In this document: positions 1,383 through 22,392 of the stretch, in pieces
Position numbering within the stretch: the first letter of the stretch is position 1
Layout of the letters: the number at the start of each line of letters is the position of its first letter
Virus record (IMG/VR): IMGVR_UViG_3300025110_000119
Coordinates: 1 to 25,049 of that record
DNA from: a virus
Lineage: Duplodnaviria > Caudoviricetes
Strand: one strand, 5' to 3'
Length of the DNA: 25,049 nt
Program-made: the position numbers and the translations under genes
Notes under the pieces: generated by a model
Databases searched by the model: none
What the model saw: the letters and a program-made list of their open reading frames with translations, nothing else
What the model was told of the DNA's origin: nothing

Positions 1383-2234
1383 ATGCCTGCTACACGCTTT
1401 GAGATTAATGGCGAACGGCATTATAGAACTGATAAAGCAGATAAAGCATATCCTTCGGTTACAACAATCCTTAGTAAATGCGCCACTGAAAGTAGCAAAA
1501 AAGCTTTAAAGAATTGGATACTTAAGAATCCTGGGGGTAGCGCAGCCGCAGCCAAGCGAGGTTCAGCGGTACACCAAGCCTGCGAGGACTATATTCGAGG
1601 GAAAGAAATAACAATAGAATCAGAATACCAACCATTTTGGAACGGAATTAGCCAACATTTAGATAAATACGATTCTTTTATTTGGAGTGAAATGCCACTG
1701 CGACCAGAGTGGTCTTATTGCACGGGAGAAGATGGAATTTCTAGAGTTTGGTCTCACAAGTATGGGTATTGTGGTTGCCCTGACTTGGTTGGAATTAGGA
1801 ATGGAACTTATATAATTGCTGACTTCAAAACTAGTAATCAACCCTATTCTCGGTATTATCCCAAAGCAAAAGCAGATCGTTCTAGGTTTACTGGTTGGAA
1901 TAAATTCAATAAATGTGCAATGCAATTAGCAGCATATGCACAAGCACTAGATGAAACTCTTGGTATCAATATTGACTGCGCTCAGATTATTGTTTCCACT
2001 CCAGAAATCGATCAAAGTTTTATTCTTACAAGAGAAGAATTAGATCGACATAGAACTAAGTGGTTGCAAAAAATTAGACGCTATCAAGAGATAAAAGAGG
2101 AAGAAGAACAAGCCAAACATATTCTTAAAGAACTAAAACAAGAGTTAGAAGATTCCGGGGATAATCTGCCCAGTAGTGAGGTAAGCACCGAGAAGGCCGA
2201 TAAAACCAATCATTGCCCAGCGACCGTTAGCTAA
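1383..2234 (+). CDS. PD-(D/E)XK family phage exonuclease
   Basis: Motifs YPSVTTIL, RGSAVH, GCPDLVG, ADFKTS, QLAAYA. ATG 1383 preferred over TTG 1371. Confidence 0.9.
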   Translation: MPATRFEINGERHYRTDKADKAYPSVTTILSKCATESSKKALKNWILKNPGGSAAAAKRGSAVHQACEDYIRGKEITIESEYQPFWNGISQHLDKYDSFIWSEMPLRPEWSYCTGEDGISRVWSHKYGYCGCPDLVGIRNGTYIIADFKTSNQPYSRYYPKAKADRSRFTGWNKFNKCAMQLAAYAQALDETLGINIDCAQIIVSTPEIDQSFILTREELDRHRTKWLQKIRRYQEIKEEEEQAKHILKELKQELEDSGDNLPSSEVSTEKADKTNHCPATVS

Positions 2235-2342
2235 TTCAGCTTCCTTGATATAACCCTTGTACTCTTCCACTAGTTGTGGCTGAGTTTCTTTGCCAAATAT
2301 ATTTTGCTTGCCGTATTCAGTTGTAATGGAAGAGTCAGTCAT
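2145..2342 (-). CDS. hli: high-light-inducible protein (HLIP), 65 aa
   Basis: AELANGRWAMIGF chlorophyll-binding helix and C-terminal TGQIIPGIF. Confidence 0.97.
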   Translation of the reverse strand: MTDSSITTEYGKQNIFGKETQPQLVEEYKGYIKEAELANGRWAMIGFIGLLGAYLTTGQIIPGIF

Positions 2343-7753: not shown

Positions 7754-8251
7754 ATGTCAAACCTGAAGCCACCTAAAGCACCAGCTCATTGGGATCAACG
7801 ATTCCTTGTTCTTGCTTCCAATATTGCTGGTTGGAGTAAAGATCCAAGCACAAAAGTAGGAGCAGTTGCTGTTAGAGATCGCAGAATATTAGCCCAAGGT
7901 TTTAATGGATTACCAGTTGGAATTACCGATAGCAATGCTCGCTTACAGGACAGAGATACTAGGTTGCTAATGACAGTTCATGCAGAGATGAATTGTGTTG
8001 CTTTCGCTGCTAAATCTGGAGTATGCCTAGCAGGAGCAACAATGTATATTTGGCCTCTAATGACTTGCAGCAACTGCGCTGCTGTTTTAATCCAAGCCGA
8101 TATCAGCAAGATCGTTGTTCCTGATTTTGTAGAACCTCTTCGCTGGCAGGAATCATTCGATGCAGCTCGTGAAATGTTCATAGAAGCTGGTATTGCGGTA
8201 CATCGAATTCCTATTCGTGGCCCCTTAGAACCAGAGGAAGATAACGACTGA
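7754..8251 (+). CDS. dCMP deaminase
   Basis: WSKDPSTKVGAV, GFNG, HAEMN and P..TCSNC zinc-binding motifs are intact. Confidence 0.95.
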   Translation: MSNLKPPKAPAHWDQRFLVLASNIAGWSKDPSTKVGAVAVRDRRILAQGFNGLPVGITDSNARLQDRDTRLLMTVHAEMNCVAFAAKSGVCLAGATMYIWPLMTCSNCAAVLIQADISKIVVPDFVEPLRWQESFDAAREMFIEAGIAVHRIPIRGPLEPEEDND

Positions 8252-8556: not shown

Positions 8557-9240
8557 ATGGCTCAATGGGCTCTGCCTCCTAATCTTCATTCGCATATTGA
8601 GGGTGGCCCATTATGTTTTCATTCCGATCACAACATCGGATCGAAAGATGGCAGAATTCCTCGCTATGCAGACAGTCATGCTTGCGTTAAATGTATTAGT
8701 GCATTAACTGAAGGACGACTAGCTCTAGATGTTCATCGCATTGAAAAACTATATAGAAGACGCTTCTTAGAATTCTGGTCTTTTGTTGAGATGGCTGGTC
8801 CTGACGAATGCTGGCCCTGGAGAGGTAAATATCATTCGCGTTGCAGGTCAAGTTACTTCTCAATCCCTAGACATTGGGGCTCTGGTCGTCAATATTCAGC
8901 AGCTCGTGTTGCCGCTTGGTTTACTTGGGGTGACCTCGGAAGACTTCCAATTAAAAATGTATGTGGAGATAACAACTGCTGTAATCCATTGCATATCCGC
9001 ATTAAAGGAGTACCTCATTATTTCCATAGGAGAACGATTGATTCAATTGATATTGACTTCAGTACACGTAAGTTAGAAAGCGAAACTCTATGTTTCCTCG
9101 AAACAACAGCCGATAAAGATCCAAGAACATTTGAACGATTAGAGAAGACAAATAAGATCTGGATCGATTGGCGGATGGGCAGCAACGAACCTGTTAACTC
9201 AATGATGGTTCCTAAATTTATGACTGAAAATAATTCCTAA
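8557..9240 (+). CDS. His-Me finger/HNH-like protein, catalytic residues apparently lost
   Basis: ECWPWRG ... SAARVAAW ... KNVCGDNNCCNPLHI scaffold; expected AHR and LHxC histidines are replaced; extra N-terminal Cys/His cluster. Confidence 0.75.
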   Translation: MAQWALPPNLHSHIEGGPLCFHSDHNIGSKDGRIPRYADSHACVKCISALTEGRLALDVHRIEKLYRRRFLEFWSFVEMAGPDECWPWRGKYHSRCRSSYFSIPRHWGSGRQYSAARVAAWFTWGDLGRLPIKNVCGDNNCCNPLHIRIKGVPHYFHRRTIDSIDIDFSTRKLESETLCFLETTADKDPRTFERLEKTNKIWIDWRMGSNEPVNSMMVPKFMTENNS

Positions 9241-9271
9241 AATAAAACTATTACTGTTCAGTTCAAGTTAG

Positions 9272-10030
9272 ATGACGTTCACGAAAGACAATGAAGCATA
9301 TTTAAGAAGTAAAGGATATTCTGGCACAAGATTCGACTCCCCTAGAGATGGTGATTTAGTCGAAAAAAATAAACATTTATACGACTCAATCATCAAAGCC
9401 GCTGGCGATGACGGTCAGTTAACACAAGCAGAGTACGAGACTATTTACAACGACCGTGGTCCTTGGGGTAAATATGCATACAATCAAGATTCAGTAACAG
9501 ATGCTTTGGCTAGGGCAGCAGCAGATAAAGGCTTTAAAATTGACCAAAATACTTTAGATAGACATGACCTCGCTTATGACGGCGATGACATCATGGCAAA
9601 AATCGAAGCAGGTGATTTCGCACCTAGCATGCAGGACAAAGACAAATATTCCTACGAAAGAACAATTGAAGATGGTGATGATCCTTACAATGTTTTTAGA
9701 TATAAAGCACAAGAACAAGAAGAAGAAAAAGAAGATGAAAAACCTGTTGAACCAGAAGTTCCAGAACCAGCTTGCCCTTCTGGACAAGTAAGAGGCACAT
9801 CAGGAGCATGCATCGAAGACAAGGAATATGCAGATAATCCTTGGGAAGAACCAAGAAAGATTCCAAAAGCAATAGATGATTTAAGGAAAGAATTGGATTC
9901 GTATTCAGGTACTGGAAGTATTGACTACCTCACTCCACACATGAGCGATCAATACAAGCCTAAAGTTGGTAGCGGTAAGTTCTCAGGCTTCTTAAGAGCT
10001 AATCAATATCAGCAAGATCGATCTAACTAG
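9272..10030 (+). CDS. acidic hypothetical protein
   Basis: 252-aa ORF, Asp/Glu-rich, with a Pro/Glu linker and a C-x10-C mini-loop. Confidence 0.85.
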   Translation: MTFTKDNEAYLRSKGYSGTRFDSPRDGDLVEKNKHLYDSIIKAAGDDGQLTQAEYETIYNDRGPWGKYAYNQDSVTDALARAAADKGFKIDQNTLDRHDLAYDGDDIMAKIEAGDFAPSMQDKDKYSYERTIEDGDDPYNVFRYKAQEQEEEKEDEKPVEPEVPEPACPSGQVRGTSGACIEDKEYADNPWEEPRKIPKAIDDLRKELDSYSGTGSIDYLTPHMSDQYKPKVGSGKFSGFLRANQYQQDRSN

Positions 10031-10065
10031 AATAAGAAAAAGTATTTAATTTCTGTAGATAAATA

Positions 10066-10716
10066 ATGTCAGCAATCAAGATAGACCCCGAAACCGAGAA
10101 GAAGTGGGCTAAAGAAAGAACCAAAACGTGGCTTCAAGAAACTTATAAAAACGAGCTTGGTCGCGATCTAGGTGATGAAGGAGAAAAATATTGGACAGCA
10201 GATATCCATGATCGAGGTCAAACAGAAGATCAAGTACTAGCAAATATCAGACGCAGTGATGAATACAAGGCATATCAAAGAGGCAAAGGAGAAGGAGATG
10301 CAACTCTTCCTGTAATTCCAGGTCCAATTATTGATGATCCAACAAAGCCAGTTCCAAAGCCAAAACCTCAAAAACCAAAATACGATTACACCCCTGACCC
10401 AGACAGGAAATACAACAAGTATTGGGATTCAATAGATGCAGCAGCAGACACTGGGAATCAGATGACTGATGATTATTATCGTCGCTTCCTGCCCCAGATG
10501 CGTAATGAAGTGCTTCTTGGAATTAATGAAATAGGCGCGGCTGATCGTTATCACGGAGATAGGTACGAGGGAAAACCTCCTACTTATTCAGATCCAAAGG
10601 AATTATTCGACTACTACAAAAGCAAAACAGGTGACTCCGACGACTCCAGCAACGATACAGTTAAAGAATTAGAAAAAAGAATTAAAGAGTTAGAGGATAA
10701 GTACACCATCAAGTAA
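10066..10716 (+). CDS. DUF4214-like domain protein with Pro-rich linker
   Basis: LQETYKNELGRDLGDEGEKYW...GQTEDQVLANIRRSDEY. Confidence 0.8.
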   Translation: MSAIKIDPETEKKWAKERTKTWLQETYKNELGRDLGDEGEKYWTADIHDRGQTEDQVLANIRRSDEYKAYQRGKGEGDATLPVIPGPIIDDPTKPVPKPKPQKPKYDYTPDPDRKYNKYWDSIDAAADTGNQMTDDYYRRFLPQMRNEVLLGINEIGAADRYHGDRYEGKPPTYSDPKELFDYYKSKTGDSDDSSNDTVKELEKRIKELEDKYTIK

Positions 10717-10755
10717 TAATCCTTGTTAAGGTTTATTAAGTATCTTGCGGAATGT

Positions 10756-10941
10756 ATGACTAAGCAGACAGTTTCGAATAAAGAATTTGTCACCGAATCA
10801 TATCGTAGTTTGCTGAATCGAGAGCCAGATTCTGAAGGATTGCAGTACTGGATTGATGATATAGAAAAGCGTGGGCAATCCCGAGACGATGTTGTTGCCA
10901 ATATCAAGCTCAGCGATGAATATCAAGCGATGGATTCTTAA
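10756..10941 (+). CDS. stand-alone DUF4214-like protein
   Basis: FVTESYRSLLNREPDSEGLQYWIDDIEKRGQSRDDVVANIKLSDEY; ATG 10756. Confidence 0.85.
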   Translation: MTKQTVSNKEFVTESYRSLLNREPDSEGLQYWIDDIEKRGQSRDDVVANIKLSDEYQAMDS

Positions 10942-11027
10942 GGATCAATTTATCTAATTTGCAAGATACAGCTTGCACTAGCTAACTAAGTGGTCTAACT
11001 TCCGCATAGAAGTTTAGGCTGTTCGTC

Positions 11028-11816
11028 GTGTCCTTCGATCAATTTGCTGTCCAAAGAATTGGTGGAGAAGAACAACCACAGAAGCTTTTATATTCAGTTT
11101 TTAAAACCTTAACCGATCGCACCCATAAACCAGTTGCAAATCTTCTTAAGGAAGATGACGAGACCTCCTTAGCAGAAGATGAAAGTGGTGATCTTTTTAT
11201 AAAGCAATGGGCACCAGCAATTAAAGAACAGACGAAAATAACCCAAGAAGCTTTTATCCCTTTCGATCATCCTCACTTAACTCTCCATATAAGAGGAGAT
11301 AGAACCACATTGTCTGATTTGAAAGAGATGTCTCAATCTCTATGTTTTAATTCCCAGTCGATATATGAGACTGCTGATAGCTATCGTAGACCTGTTAAAG
11401 ACTTCAACCATTGCCTCGAAGAATTTGTTTATTCAAGAGTGGTTGGTTTTTACTCGCCTGAAGATGAGGCTGATTTTAAATGGACTGAACAAGATAGAAA
11501 TGAACAATTAGCAGCCTCCTATTCACAATTAATTGACTTCAATGCCGCACGGGAGAAAGGGATTGCTAAAGAAGTCGCTCAGGAATCTTTGCCACAAAAT
11601 TTGTTAATTAACGCTACAGTAACTGCAAGTCTCGGCGATTGGCTACGTCTACTTGAGCGAGCAAGCTTGATGCGTAGCAGCTTCGAAATGAAGACGATCG
11701 TTGACAAAATTGCAGAAGAAATTCGCAAGTGGGTTCCCGAGATTTACAAGTGGTGGTATTCAGGATTTGAAAAGAAAAGAGCAAGGAAGAAGCAATCTAA
11801 ATCAATCGCAGCATGA
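11028..11816 (+). CDS. thyX: ThyX (flavin-dependent thymidylate synthase) homologue with degenerate active site
   Basis: PFDHPHLTL, FNSQSIYET, LEEFVYSRVVGFYS, GIAKEVAQESLP and KWVPEIYKWW align by eye with cyanobacterial ThyX; the (R/T)HR-x7-S-x-R signature is broken. Confidence 0.75.
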   Translation: MSFDQFAVQRIGGEEQPQKLLYSVFKTLTDRTHKPVANLLKEDDETSLAEDESGDLFIKQWAPAIKEQTKITQEAFIPFDHPHLTLHIRGDRTTLSDLKEMSQSLCFNSQSIYETADSYRRPVKDFNHCLEEFVYSRVVGFYSPEDEADFKWTEQDRNEQLAASYSQLIDFNAAREKGIAKEVAQESLPQNLLINATVTASLGDWLRLLERASLMRSSFEMKTIVDKIAEEIRKWVPEIYKWWYSGFEKKRARKKQSKSIAA

Positions 11817-11826
11817 GGCTTTCTCT

Positions 11827-12042
11827 ATGGAAAGCACCAACGATCTATTTGAATTACATTCATCCATCAGTTTATTAATTGATTCTTTTCTAGAAGATCC
11901 AAAATACAGGCAATACGTTCCCCTTCTAACCCAAGCGGAATACATAGCAGATCATTTGTTAGTTCAAACGCAGAACATGAATTTGCATGGCAAGACCGAA
12001 GCCTACAGAACTTTTAGTCAAGTTCTTTCCAGAACTCATTGA
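11827..12042 (+). CDS. hypothetical protein
   Basis: In-frame ATG 11827 within track ORF 11701..12042; fills the operon gap. Confidence 0.55.
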   Translation: MESTNDLFELHSSISLLIDSFLEDPKYRQYVPLLTQAEYIADHLLVQTQNMNLHGKTEAYRTFSQVLSRTH

Positions 12043-12442
12043 CAAGTCTGTACCGACCAAGAATAAAGAAGCATCTAAAGAATTAAACGTCAGAGTCTGT
12101 GAAGCAATTATTTCTGATCTGATCGGGAAGTTTGATTCCTTATTTAGTTACATGGGCGAAGGGGCTTTGATCGTCAAGCTCGCTACTCGTCACGGCAAAG
12201 AAACCATTCAAACGCAAAACTATATCAACCGATTCTCACTTGAGAGAGATCTAGCAGAAGCAAAGAAAGCAGGCGATGCAACGGTTGAGGAGTTCTTAAA
12301 AGATGTCTTAGCGAAAGTCAAGAAGTGCAAATTTGACGATGAAATCTGCATCCTCCTACTAGACAACTCTGGAGGATCTGCTGCAATTCTGCCAAGAGAT
12401 AATCCGGCGAAACGAATACAAACAATGATTGATGAGCTGTAA
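11987..12442 (+). CDS. hypothetical protein
   Basis: 151-aa ATG ORF with globular alpha/beta-like composition. Confidence 0.85.
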   Translation: MARPKPTELLVKFFPELIDKSVPTKNKEASKELNVRVCEAIISDLIGKFDSLFSYMGEGALIVKLATRHGKETIQTQNYINRFSLERDLAEAKKAGDATVEEFLKDVLAKVKKCKFDDEICILLLDNSGGSAAILPRDNPAKRIQTMIDEL

Positions 12443-12444
12443 TC

Positions 12445-13071
12445 ATGGCTCAGACAGAAAGACTTTATAAATGTGACTTAGCCCCACCAGCCCCAGTCAT
12501 TCAGGGAGCTCGTAGTGTTCTCGGCACGATTGATCTTGACCCCTACTCAACGAAAGACATTAATCGTTCAGTCATGGCTGCTCGATTCTTCGACCGAGAT
12601 AAAGAAACCTTAGAAAGCATTATCCATAAAACATGGGATACGCCCAATGAAGGAAGAGTCTTCGTTGGGGCTCCTACGGGTGCAGCCCTAACAAGAAGAC
12701 TCATCAATAAGACACTAGCTGAATATAGACAAGGTCGGATCAGTCATGCCGTGATTTGGATGGCTCATAACGAGGCAATCATTCGAGCGCCTTGGCTATG
12801 GGACTTTCCAATGTGCATCCCATTTAGAAGGCTTCGACCCCAGTGGTGGGATGACGAACTGGAAACATTCAGAGGGGTTTCTCCTTCTGATTGGTCCGCC
12901 ATCGCGTACCTACCACCGACTGATCCAAACAAATTTCATACTGCGCTATCGAGATTCCATAACGTCTTTAGCCCAATCGGCAGAGTTGTTTTCAACGAAT
13001 ACAGCGGTGAGGGTGACTGGGATGAGTCCTACAAAATTGCATTCGGGAAAAATTATGATTACCGAGGTTGA
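12445..13071 (+). CDS. phage N6-adenine DNA methyltransferase homologue lacking NPPY
   Basis: ARSVLGTIDLDPYS, AEYRQGRISHAV and WDFPMCIPFRRL match phage Dam-like proteins; GRVFVGAPT occupies the GRVxxNPPY position. Confidence 0.75.
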   Translation: MAQTERLYKCDLAPPAPVIQGARSVLGTIDLDPYSTKDINRSVMAARFFDRDKETLESIIHKTWDTPNEGRVFVGAPTGAALTRRLINKTLAEYRQGRISHAVIWMAHNEAIIRAPWLWDFPMCIPFRRLRPQWWDDELETFRGVSPSDWSAIAYLPPTDPNKFHTALSRFHNVFSPIGRVVFNEYSGEGDWDESYKIAFGKNYDYRG

Positions 13072-13495
13072 TACAGACAGAACGGAAGTAGATAGTTTCC
13101 TTGCTCCAGACGGAAACACATACTTAACGATTCGATCTGTTGTTTACGATTCGTGGATTATCTGGCAAGACGCGATTCCTTTTGAAAAAGATTTGCGCTT
13201 GATGTTAACTCAAGAGATCTACGACAACATCGTTGAGCTTGGTACTCGTGTGCATAAACTACATCAATCGCTTCCTGGCTATAAGGCTCTAACAGAATCT
13301 CCATTCGACTTTGTCTTATGGTTCGATCCTCTAGACTCAGATCCAGATTGGAACGAAGGTAAGAAATGTAGATTTATGATTAAGGATTTCACAGCAGATG
13401 AACTCGTCTACTTCAACACGCTAAAGAAAGCAAATAAACTAGAAGTCAAGCCGATGACCAGTCGTCTGGTCGAAGCAAAGATCCCTGTCAAGTAA
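13055..13495 (+). CDS. possible degenerate peptidase M15 (endolysin-like) homologue
   Basis: IIWQDA..R..TQEIYDNIVELGTRVHKL..PFDFVLWFDP..DWNEGKKCRF resembles the M15 scaffold (NI..LA..L..PF.ITSWYRP..S.H..G.AVD) without SxHxxGxAxD. ATG 13055 overlaps the previous gene. Confidence 0.5.
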   Translation: MITEVDTDRTEVDSFLAPDGNTYLTIRSVVYDSWIIWQDAIPFEKDLRLMLTQEIYDNIVELGTRVHKLHQSLPGYKALTESPFDFVLWFDPLDSDPDWNEGKKCRFMIKDFTADELVYFNTLKKANKLEVKPMTSRLVEAKIPVK

Positions 13496-14191: not shown

Positions 14192-14581
14192 GTGAAGACT
14201 CGTTTTGATCTTGTGCCTTGGGATGCTGTTGCAGACATCGCTGATGTCCTCCAGTATGGCGCTGCAAAGTATGGGGCGCATAATTGGTGCAGAGGTGCCC
14301 ACTGGAGCAGATACTTCTCGGCTCTATGCAGACATGTATTCGCATGGTGGAGAGGAGAAGACAGGGATAGAGAAACAGGGAAAAGCCACCTTGCCCACGC
14401 TGGATGCTGCTTGCTCTTTCTAATGGAATACCAGCGAAATAGTTGGGGCACAGATGATCGTTTTACTGGTCCAGATGATCAGATATTCAACAAAGATGAC
14501 GGCCTCTCGAAAGATACATTTAGCATGGAATTATACGAACAAATTAGCAAAGCTGATCCCATCGATTTAGGTTTGGAGTAA
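14192..14581 (+). CDS. dATP/dGTP diphosphohydrolase-domain protein (DUF5664)
   Basis: KTRFDLVP, VLQYGAAKYGAHNWCRG, SRYFSALCRH, GEDRDRETGKSHLAHA. Confidence 0.9.
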   Translation: MKTRFDLVPWDAVADIADVLQYGAAKYGAHNWCRGAHWSRYFSALCRHVFAWWRGEDRDRETGKSHLAHAGCCLLFLMEYQRNSWGTDDRFTGPDDQIFNKDDGLSKDTFSMELYEQISKADPIDLGLE

Positions 14582-15545: not shown

Positions 15546-15878
15546 CTATTCGTCGTTTCCTAGGACAATCGCATCCATGTCTAGCTCAAAGTTGGTCGAA
15601 TCAATAATGTCCTGCAACGACTCTTCCTCTTCTTCACAGAAGGCTAAATCAGTATCATTATCTTCCATTATTCTTGACGGCAAGGAAGCTGTTCCTTCTG
15701 TAAATTTAAAAGCAAAACCAGCGTCCTTGCTAGCCATAAGAAAGACTTGCTTCTGTGTGAATCTCCCCTCCCAACAATCTAGTAATGCTGCGATCAAGTC
15801 TTCCCTCGAGTAGTCCCTGATCTCGATTGCAATCTTTTGAAGCAGGTATGCTTGCTCCATCGTTAGATCTGGGTTCAT
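15546..15878 (-). CDS. NblA-like protein with acidic C-terminal extension
   Basis: LTMEQAYLLQKIAIEIRDYSREDLIAALL resembles NblA L(S/T)xEQxF...SREQ; ATG 15878 preferred. Confidence 0.55.
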   Translation of the reverse strand: MNPDLTMEQAYLLQKIAIEIRDYSREDLIAALLDCWEGRFTQKQVFLMASKDAGFAFKFTEGTASLPSRIMEDNDTDLAFCEEEEESLQDIIDSTNFELDMDAIVLGNDE

Positions 15879-16263
15879 AATGAATCGCTCCTGATAAACA
15901 CCATAGATCAAATAGATCGTTATTCAGAGGTGTAACCCATTCCTTAATTCTGTCTGCTTTTTCCGAGCAATAAAAAGTTTGCTCTTTATACCAGACCAAC
16001 CAATCACGTTGAGAACCTTTTGCTGAATTACATGGTAGACATGCTGGCACAAGATTAGTGCGTAGACTGCTACCACCAAAAGCTTTCGGTTTTAAATGAT
16101 CAATCGTTAAGTGAATTTTAGCCCCTTTACTATCTACCCCGTTTCCGCAATAAGCACAACAGCCCCATTCGTCTTTGATTGACTGTCTAAAACGTCTCAA
16201 AGCAGCACCTTTGGAGATCTCTACCAACCCGAAACGGTAGCTCTCCCAACGATCTGGTATCAA
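15730..16263 (-). CDS. HNH endonuclease (McrA-like)
   Basis: CAYCG, LTIDHLKPKAFGG and NLVPACLPCNSAKG are intact. Confidence 0.92.
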   Translation of the reverse strand: MIPDRWESYRFGLVEISKGAALRRFRQSIKDEWGCCAYCGNGVDSKGAKIHLTIDHLKPKAFGGSSLRTNLVPACLPCNSAKGSQRDWLVWYKEQTFYCSEKADRIKEWVTPLNNDLFDLWCLSGAIHYEPRSNDGASIPASKDCNRDQGLLEGRLDRSITRLLGGEIHTEASLSYG

Positions 16264-21054: not shown

Positions 21055-22392
21055 TTAGGCTGCATACGGGTGTTGATGGTTTCTGATCATCGCCTTTTTC
21101 TCATCTTCTTTATCTAGCCAAAGCAGATATTCTTGCTTGTGAACAGCTAAGCCATGCCCCATCGCTTCAGCGCATTCTTCGATTGTCTTCAATCTCTTAA
21201 AGGCTGGATCAGTATGCATAAAGACTGCCCATGTATGTCGAAGGTCGTATGGTCGAACCTCTATTTTCTTCCTTGACCTTTTGACTGGAGATTTAACTAG
21301 TAGTGGAGGCATTGAGCGTTCTGCTCTCCCTTTCTTTCCGTAAGAGGTAGGTCCAGTTTTTCCAAATCTTCCTTTCAGTGTTCCGTATCTAATGTTTTGA
21401 TGTTTTATTCCTAAAGTGTTGCGAGTTAAATATTCCCCTAGCTCGTCGTTGTTATCCCCTATCCCATCAAAATAAATATCCTCATCATCAATCGAATAAG
21501 TTCGAGTGAGTGGATTTGCAATGCTTTTGATACGTGGCTTTCTTTTCCAGCGTAAATAAAACTGATGCTCATCAAAATTTTTAAATAATCCATATCTCTC
21601 ATCCCACTCAGCAAATGCAGGCCAGACTATTCGATCTACGTTTGACTTAGTAAGTCGCCTCGGTACCTCAATAAAAAGATTTCCCAGCTTTTTGATGTAC
21701 CACAGTTCATGATTTCTAAGGCCGTAACACATCATCATTGCAATAGCCCAGCACTGCCATGGAAACTCTTTGTAGTGCTTGTCTAAATATTTTTCTGCTT
21801 CCTCTCTCGAAACGATTCCTCGAACTTGTCTCAAATCTTGCTTATCTAAATTCCTAGTCAATTCTTTACGTTGTTCTGCATGAAGATCTCGAATTGCTCG
21901 ATACTGTTCATCTGTAAACCAAGCAGGATTTCCATAGAACTTTTGAAGTTGTCTAATAAATTCCAATCGGGTCTGGAAAGGTTTTGTTCCACATTGTTTT
22001 TCTTTTAACCATTCTTTAATTGCTTTATGAGATTGTTTGATTTGTTTTTCTTTTAATTGTTTTAATAAAGAAAAATAATTTTTATTCGTAGATCCTTTAT
22101 TTCTCTTTTGTAAAAATCCTTTAATTGCTGCTTCGTCTTTTTGCCAAATATTAAGTTCTTCTTCTTGAATATCATCATCACTCCAAACACCTTGATCAAT
22201 AATTTTGATTTTGTTGCAAACCCATTCACAATCTTGATCGCTATCTATCCTTCTTGGTTTGAGCGAAATTCTTGTGTTTCGATTTCTATTATCTCTCACA
22301 TAAATATATTTACTGTCTCCACGAGTAAGCATGCTCCAGCGGTAATTGCATTCCTCTAAAAAAGCAATGTACTTTTTGATGGGTAAATTCAT
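21055..22392 (-). CDS. int: tyrosine integrase
   Basis: YGLRNHE, TKS, YDLRHTWA and MGHGLAVHKQEY give the R-K-(H/Y)xxR-H-Y catalytic set; adjacent to a tRNA fragment. Confidence 0.95.
   Translation of the reverse strand: MNLPIKKYIAFLEECNYRWSMLTRGDSKYIYVRDNRNRNTRISLKPRRIDSDQDCEWVCNKIKIIDQGVWSDDDIQEEELNIWQKDEAAIKGFLQKRNKGSTNKNYFSLLKQLKEKQIKQSHKAIKEWLKEKQCGTKPFQTRLEFIRQLQKFYGNPAWFTDEQYRAIRDLHAEQRKELTRNLDKQDLRQVRGIVSREEAEKYLDKHYKEFPWQCWAIAMMMCYGLRNHELWYIKKLGNLFIEVPRRLTKSNVDRIVWPAFAEWDERYGLFKNFDEHQFYLRWKRKPRIKSIANPLTRTYSIDDEDIYFDGIGDNNDELGEYLTRNTLGIKHQNIRYGTLKGRFGKTGPTSYGKKGRAERSMPPLLVKSPVKRSRKKIEVRPYDLRHTWAVFMHTDPAFKRLKTIEECAEAMGHGLAVHKQEYLLWLDKEDEKKAMIRNHQHPYAA

Follow-up and report, generated by a model that had tools for sequence, protein, structure and literature searches.

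Conserved pseudoenzyme-like genes with traceable losses of catalytic residues in the replication region of a tailed phage

Why would a tailed phage keep genes for four enzyme-like proteins that lack the residues on which their chemistry depends? The question is raised by virus record IMGVR_UViG_3300025110_000119 (Duplodnaviria; Caudoviricetes), a 25 kb record whose entire stretch of 25,049 nucleotides is referred to here as the window. A sequence-only reading of this DNA had picked out four uninterrupted co-directional open reading frames (ORFs), and all four are indeed open and on the plus strand. They encode a His-Me/HNH-like, a ThyX-like, a methylase-like and an M15-like protein (Table 1), each of which, judged by its residues, keeps the scaffold of its family and lacks the catalytic ones, as had been noticed. 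The explanation that fits best, and that is held with moderate confidence, is that they are four conserved non-enzymatic binding or scaffolding proteins, each of which likely lost its chemistry at a different time, and not as one module. The conserved run of genes in which they lie is called the block here. IMG/VR relatives that keep the gene order of the window across 10-20 kb are called the lineage; Synechococcus phage S-EIV1 (KJ410740) and a sister group have three block genes in common with it, those for the HNH-like protein, a 151-amino-acid (aa) protein and the methylase-like protein.

The ThyX-like protein matches PF02511 with 39.5 bits against a cut-off of 24.8 (E 6.8e-10). Of the residues that matter in ThyX (T. 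maritima numbering), R147 presumably activates deoxyuridine monophosphate (dUMP), and H53 presumably belongs to the folate site. The numbering was obtained by alignment to 1kq4 (TM0449), assuming a 12-residue tag so that S88, R90, Y91 and R174 agree with PMC8316439, the accessible part of which describes the roles of these four, R174 being dUMP-activating. The window protein has no equivalents of H53, H79, R80, R90, Y91, R147, N163, R165 or R174. The RHR-x7-S motif (R/T-H-R in intact relatives) is broken, with E100-M101-S102, Y113 and E114 around a retained S111, and the positions of R174, R147 and H53 are taken by A212, Q185 and A75. All 25 intact sequences have equivalents of H53, H79, R90, Y91, R147 and R174, and none of the 46 eroded ones has any of these six; the counts include near-duplicates and omit L065 and three side-branch sequences. 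The same residues are lost in 16 eroded representatives (<80% identity), all of which keep H59 and E182, and 12 of which keep S88; the eroded proteins also have new invariant residues. Intact ThyX proteins, whose genes occupy the same slot in related phages, have flavin adenine dinucleotide (FAD)-, dUMP- and folate-binding as well as catalytic residues; the eroded ones, which are nested among them, do not. The best match of the ThyX alignment in the PDB reached only E 0.07. The eroded gene is the sole PF02511 match in each record tested, including G001 (100% complete) and G006 (95%); the 22 records that matched yielded no further copy of ThyX, and no ThyA was seen in five records. No report of an inactive phage ThyX was found among the literature matches listed, nor in the accessible text of PMC7824862.

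Across 61 lineage loci, the ThyX slot holds an intact gene in 29 and an eroded one in 24, and the gene was not found in eight, three of which are contig ends; the other five (L064, L066-L068 and L163) span the place without the gene. When these states are placed on a tree built from six other genes, the eroded forms make up one large clade (support 1.0) and a small side branch, and a third group has lost the gene. The ThyX tree, a quick one with long branches, joins the eroded groups weakly (support 84), and one or two origins of erosion are possible. An explanation by uracil-containing DNA was considered and set aside as uninformative, since no dUTPase scored over the cut-off in 16 records, ThyX-intact ones alike. 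At L057 and L058, ThyX is relocated or inverted, and L065 (7818-9557) encodes a 580-aa ThyX with intact motifs around what looks by eye like an intein in the conserved HYG/CLEH motif.

The methylase-like window protein has no Pfam match of its own. HHalign relates its family to 19 phage proteins, all PF05869, at 99.5% (E 2e-22) over most of the length, and an AlphaFold model (predicted local distance difference test, pLDDT, 91.8) has PCIF1 as its best Foldseek match in the PDB (E 2e-4, template modelling (TM) score 0.42-0.47). The [DNSH]PP[YFW] motif of such enzymes primes the target amine, according to the accessible part of PMC4738411. The catalytic NPPY position reads GAPT in the window, and [NDS]PP[YFW] occurs in 0 of 104 homologues. 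None of the 52 sequences from the lineage or of the 16 from the sister lineage has the motif IV Asn, which all 20 canonical relatives possess (NPPY, NHPF, NPPS or NHPY). The motif is FPPT or FPPN in all 16 sister-group sequences, including S-EIV1; because the sister group also lacks the Asn, its loss is likely older than the split. In the 52 lineage sequences, 21 different four-residue strings occur, none with N, D or H at the first position. The DLDPxS..N motif, on the other hand, is kept (D30 in 103, D32 in 102 and N40 in 102 of 104 homologues, with S35 also kept); it is the likely S-adenosylmethionine (SAM)-binding motif of PCIF1-type enzymes, in which D30, D32, S35 and N40 would line the SAM site. 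Phage PF05869 methylases and PCIF1 (CAPAM) have the fold, the N-terminal motifs and a full-length profile alignment in common with this protein. The lineage proteins, however, lack the motif IV Asn and aromatic residue and carry an extra conserved NE..PWxWD segment. No PF05869 duplicate was found in five records, in a search that did not extend to other methylase families. No association in the block is firmer than that of the methylase-like gene with the gene for the 151-aa protein, which precedes it in the lineage, at 22 of 22 sister loci and in S-EIV1; the 151-aa protein is a candidate partner of the methylase-like protein.

The His-Me/HNH-like protein matches phrog_1872 at E 1e-9, and its scaffold aligns with two annotated phage HNH proteins. 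The CWxWxG, xxR and C..C.NPxH elements are present, in a protein of His-Cys box type with an added N-terminal Cys/His cluster. C85, C136, C141, N143, P144 and H146 are invariant in 60 of 60 sequences, and the eight invariant Cys and His residues (C20, H25, C43 and C46 together with C85, C136, C141 and H146) are likely zinc ligands. Catalysis by His-Me enzymes needs a first-strand His and a helix Asn or His, according to the accessible text of PMC5714182. In the window, Asn134 stands at the general-base His and Tyr155 at the helix metal-ligand Asn, and because both catalytic positions are affected, the protein is likely inactive, as far as its residues tell. Among 120 homologues, 12 different residues occupy the general-base position (His in 43, absent in 77), and the helix Asn is absent at the aligned position in all 120; the sister lineage keeps the general-base His in 13 of 14 sequences. 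The nuclease is the weakest of the four cases, because this His survives in so many homologues. Compared with His-Cys box nucleases, the family lacks the helix Asn, is polymorphic for the general-base His, has the extra N-terminal cluster, and is encoded by a single-copy, syntenic gene and not by a mobile one.

The M15-like protein is recognised by its predicted fold. No significant sequence-level match was found, with PF08291 in 0 of 52 members and an HHalign probability of 0.2% against four intact M15 domains. A model built from 52 orthologues (pLDDT 91.9) has the Zn DD-peptidase 1lbu as its best PDB match (Z 9.7, root-mean-square deviation 2.9, 109 residues aligned). A Hedgehog domain follows at Z 5.8, and then further Hedgehog domains and other M15 enzymes; Foldseek found Hedgehog domains weakly (best E 0.04) and a viral M15A model at TM 0.63. 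The predicted fold is therefore that of the M15A/Hedgehog DD-peptidases, while the canonical zinc ligands and sequence similarity of M15A (1lbu; PF08291) are missing. In a register taken from a weak profile alignment and a reading of the motifs, the zinc-ligand positions (His-x6-Asp ... His) are occupied by W99, R106 and E140 in the window; across the family, the first His is W in 50 of 52, the Asp is R, L, V or I, and the second His is mostly E and never His. Three relatives have an intact M15 domain on their endolysin, and among the duplicates checked only M15 has such an intact counterpart. At L058 and L059, the M15-like gene precedes the methylase-like gene. Alignments of the methylase-like, M15-like, HNH-like and 151-aa proteins gave no significant sequence match in the PDB, nor did the ESM Atlas hold a usable match for the M15-like or 151-aa protein.

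All four genes are under purifying selection. Frames are full length at 52 of 53 loci for ThyX, 60 of 61 for the methylase, 53 of 61 for M15 and 47 of 51 for HNH, the four HNH frames scored as misses being at most four residues from the length cut-off. The ratio of nonsynonymous to synonymous substitution (dN/dS; by the simple method of Nei and Gojobori, for 12 pairs within the clades that have eroded ThyX, pooling those with dS <1.5) is 0.013 for HNH, the lowest in the block, 0.127 for ThyX, 0.068 for the methylase and 0.12 for M15, all values far from 1 even though the pairs overlap in sequences and many synonymous distances are saturated, a weakness of the argument. The deaminase, primase and dGTPase give 0.024, 0.065 and 0.094 for comparison, and intact ThyX gives 0.151 (12 other pairs). 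Thus, neither the dN/dS near 1 nor the frequent frameshifts that would have spoken against co-option were seen. The gene order of the block is conserved in most lineage loci, and the intact deoxycytidine monophosphate (dCMP) and deoxyguanosine triphosphate (dGTP) enzymes are equally syntenic.

A mirror image of the ThyX pattern is found in the dCMP deaminase. The sequence-only reading had set the block against intact neighbours, which is correct for the deaminase and the second HNH nuclease in the window (the DH..N..CN motif of the latter is intact in 44 of 44 loci where it was found) but fails among the relatives, where the HAE and CxxC motifs of the deaminase are lost, with frames open, in 12 of 49 loci (L077-L082, L084-L088 and L096). 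These loci form one high-GC clade (support 0.986) with intact ThyX and a dN/dS of about 0.05-0.2, and no second deaminase over the cut-off was present in five deaminase-eroded records. ThyX is eroded and the deaminase intact at 16 loci, the reverse holds at 12, both are intact at 17, and both are eroded at none, a zero that stems from few evolutionary events. The losses also differ in age: those of the methylase motif and the nuclease metal ligand are common to the sister group, that of the peptidase ligands extends over the whole lineage, and that in ThyX is recent.

What, then, would these proteins do? Co-option of enzyme folds, as first proposed for this locus, is supported by the recovered folds, the absent catalytic residues, the full-length ORFs and the low dN/dS. 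The His-Me protein may be a zinc-stabilised DNA-binding factor, by analogy with the Smad MH1 domain, an inactive DNA-binding derivative of the His-Me fold (PMC5714182, as far as its text is accessible). The methylase-like protein might bind SAM and nucleic acid without methylating, probably together with the upstream 151-aa protein. The M15-like protein could be a soluble peptide- or protein-binding domain, lysis being left to the intact M15 domain of the endolysin; no hydrophobic stretch suggestive of a membrane anchor was seen in any of the four proteins. The ThyX-like protein would have retained both fold and contacts because it partners other proteins of replication or nucleotide supply. 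The need for its catalysis likely disappeared with the move of one branch to a host of low GC content, probably Prochlorococcus. The host of the phages is likely a marine cyanobacterium, to judge from psbA, nblA and the kinship with the sister group and S-EIV1. According to the accessible parts of the sources, Prochlorococcus is expected to use a ThyX of its own (PMC5954106), and the thymidine that it excretes is almost half as much as it incorporates into its DNA (bioRxiv 10.1101/2024.02.09.579562). In a host with surplus deoxythymidine monophosphate (dTMP), the chemistry of a phage ThyX would be dispensable. Host surplus alone leaves the retention of the protein unexplained, and a non-catalytic contact is the proposed reason for keeping it. 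The mirror-image loss of deaminase catalysis in another clade likewise suggests that, where the host supplies the chemistry, non-catalytic contacts are what keeps genes of the block in place.

Several observations weigh against this account. Loss had been thought to focus on active sites, and 10 of 15 ligand or catalytic ThyX columns are indeed kept in <20% of the 16 eroded representatives, but the same applies to 32 of the 61 remaining columns that intact relatives conserve; these extra lost columns and the long stem branches are compatible with a phase of relaxed selection. The associations of erosion with low GC content (37-49% in 24 eroded loci, 21 of them at or below 42.2%, versus 49-66% in 29 intact ones) and with psbA (present in 6 of 11 records with eroded ThyX, in none of 13 with intact ThyX, and in the one ThyX-less record tested) reflect two or three evolutionary events, the loci not being independent. 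The five eroded records without psbA are 32-76% complete. In G001, a complete close relative, the nearest genes to psbA among named records are from Prochlorococcus phages, but low GC alone can draw psbA towards these.

There are also signs that would suit a different explanation, that at least one protein is enzymatically active after all, by a rebuilt site or on a new substrate, for instance as a non-NPPY SAM transferase, a His154 nickase or an H67/H70/D91/E140 metalloprotein. His154, one residue before the usual metal-ligand position, is present in 119 of 120 HNH homologues, and the general-base His of 43 of them, and of nearly all sister-lineage sequences, means that some relatives could still cut. 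Some His-Me nucleases do have another residue in place of the His (PMC5714182, accessible text). The methylase-like family retains the likely SAM-binding motif and a near-invariant N109-E110, and the M15-like family conserves H67, H70, D91 and E140, so that a rebuilt active site is conceivable in either; all three families thus have near-invariant polar residues outside the canonical motifs. On the other hand, the canonical positions vary freely, as in motif IV of the lineage methylases, H67 and H70 are missing in distant M15-like members, and no substitute ligand set is conserved in eroded ThyX. The general-base substitution of the nuclease is not fixed in its family. A surviving or new activity somewhere among the four proteins is on balance unlikely, if the best placed of the competing explanations.

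The non-catalytic reading can be taken a step further, speculatively. In this polymerase-less cyanophage, the products of the block might form a physical assembly for replication and nucleotide supply. Enzymes whose chemistry has passed to the host would remain in it as structural subunits, and disarmed ThyX would co-assemble with the host ThyX tetramer, redirecting or tuning dTMP synthesis for the phage. Such an assembly would account for the disarming of ThyX in one clade and of dCMP deaminase in another, but the idea is a long shot.

Could there instead be one co-evolved module, made up of all four products or of the 151-aa protein and the last three, that serves as a virion part or as an array of decoys for host defence? 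Gene order would be in keeping with this: the methylase-like and M15-like genes are adjacent in 58 of 60 loci, the 151-aa gene is at most 300 nucleotides (nt) from the methylase-like gene in 58 of 60, and spacing is tight, with overlaps. The last three genes had been described as a tightly coupled run, which is true of the spacing, but two further ORFs stand between ThyX and the methylase. However, the other three genes stay eroded whichever state ThyX is in (intact, eroded, relocated, not found), and at 22 of 22 loci of the sister lineage the HNH-like, 151-aa and methylase-like genes are present with no M15-like match in the fetched flanks. In G001, the block adjoins the primase-helicase in the replication region, away from the terminase and tail genes, and the syntenic dCMP and dGTP enzymes show that shared order extends to intact genes; nothing direct favours the virion or decoy ideas. 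Because the losses differ in age and the ThyX and deaminase states vary, the single module of the sequence-only reading is unsupported, and a co-evolved unit of this kind is improbable. Least probable is that the genes are decaying remnants yet to gain stops or frameshifts, since the faster divergence of ThyX (44-65% identity where the deaminase has 86-90%) and its absence from five spanning loci are set against tip dN/dS values of 0.01-0.13, which largely refute decay, full-length frames at nearly all loci and the new invariant residues of eroded ThyX.

The interpretation as co-opted, non-enzymatic proteins has precedents. In orthopoxviruses, 16 exapted inactivated enzymes have been reported (bioRxiv 10.1101/2022.11.22.517515, in its accessible part), by the same process of keeping folds and disrupting catalytic sites. 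DIRS1 retrotransposons carry inactive PCIF1-derived domains (PMC4738411, accessible text), so that a mobile element with an inactive domain from this broad clade is already on record. The four genes are thus real, conserved pseudoenzyme-like genes of a type already known from poxviruses and from single domains (Smad MH1, PCIF1-derived). Unlike the orthopoxvirus cases, as far as these are described in that source, they belong to a tailed phage whose lineage includes both intact and eroded orthologues, which allows the losses to be put in order; what stands out is the traceable, mirror-image losses in one pathway. Since two enzymes of that pathway each occur in the same slot in both forms, the lineage makes the origin of viral pseudoenzymes testable. 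There is a practical side as well. On the strength of profile matches alone, it is common to list the thyX, dCMP deaminase and methylase genes of phages as metabolic or anti-restriction genes, and since this ThyX passes the Pfam cut-off without its catalytic residues, naming by family can wrongly credit a virus with metabolic activity. For the four genes themselves, the families that had been named were recovered by Pfam (ThyX), PHROGs (His-Me) and HHalign (methylase), while M15 came from the predicted fold and not from a sequence profile.

To which phages does the block belong? Complete relatives are 82-94 kb, and the lineage is about 85 kb. G001 carries psbA, a ferritin-like gene, genes for single-stranded DNA-binding protein (SSB), terminase and tail, and one for a lysozyme with a fused M15 domain, in a Pfam scan that covered 126 of its 147 called ORFs. 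A family A DNA polymerase was found in 0 of 15 lineage records, most of them nearly complete, versus 5 of 6 sister-group records. No other polymerase family turned up in the Pfam scan of G001, and no separate search was aimed at other polymerase families. The polymerase-less records (G001, G006, G010-G018 and G023-G025) have the primase-helicase and SSB. The nblA/integrase cyanophage lineage of Flores-Uribe (bioRxiv 10.1101/325100) is similar in genome size to the present lineage, as is S-EIV1, but both possess a family A DNA polymerase, split in the former, according to the accessible part of that source. The present lineage has none, and identity with the published one was rejected for that reason. 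The main text of that preprint, in its accessible part, has no mention of the block genes; no publication on the present lineage was found in the literature, and the supplements of the preprint could contain relevant annotation. Matches to the methylase-like protein in GTDB fall in metagenome-assembled genomes of mixed taxa (archaea, Flavobacteriales, Planctomycetes and others) and indicate no host; eight short GTDB contigs with close homologues (L211-L218) are probably from the present phage lineage.

Table 1. Positions of the block genes and other features in the window.
Feature	Position	Strand	Remarks
Small protein	2145-2342	-	by eye, resembles a high-light-inducible protein
dCMP deaminase	7754..8251	+	motifs intact in the window
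His-Me/HNH-like	8557-9240	+	227 aa; phrog_1872
Three intervening faster-evolving ORFs, two with DUF4214	9272..10941	+	separate the HNH-like gene from ThyX
ThyX-like	11028-11816	+	262 aa; PF02511
71-aa ORF	11827-12042	+	within the run; only in close relatives
151-aa protein, no known family	11987-12442	+	directly 5' of the methylase-like gene
PF05869-type methylase-like	12445-13071	+	208 aa; HHalign and predicted structure
M15A-like	13055-13495	+	146 aa from ATG; 17-nt overlap with the methylase-like gene; predicted structure
dATP/dGTP diphosphohydrolase	14192..14581	+	PF18909, score far above the Pfam cut-off; conserved
NblA-like 121-aa protein	15546-15911	-	weak NblA match (E 0.038); conserved across the lineage
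Second HNH nuclease	15730..16263	-	control
445-aa protein	21055-22392	-	tyrosine-recombinase-like HxxR..H..Y tail; no integrase match in Pfam or PHROG searches

The gene content of the window further includes an exonuclease, a repressor-like gene and the VapE-type primase-helicase, besides the dCMP deaminase, dGTP diphosphohydrolase, second HNH, NblA-like and integrase-like genes of Table 1. No tRNA was called in the window, and a scan of it for promoters and terminators gave chance level only. Two sequencing runs of uncertain type contributed five short contigs of low depth, which do not count here as evidence of expression. One relative, G002, is classed as a provirus. DUF4214 domains (window 10066-10941; L194:1828-3306; L195:1998-3623) are present within the block and, as repeats, also in the structural region of G001.

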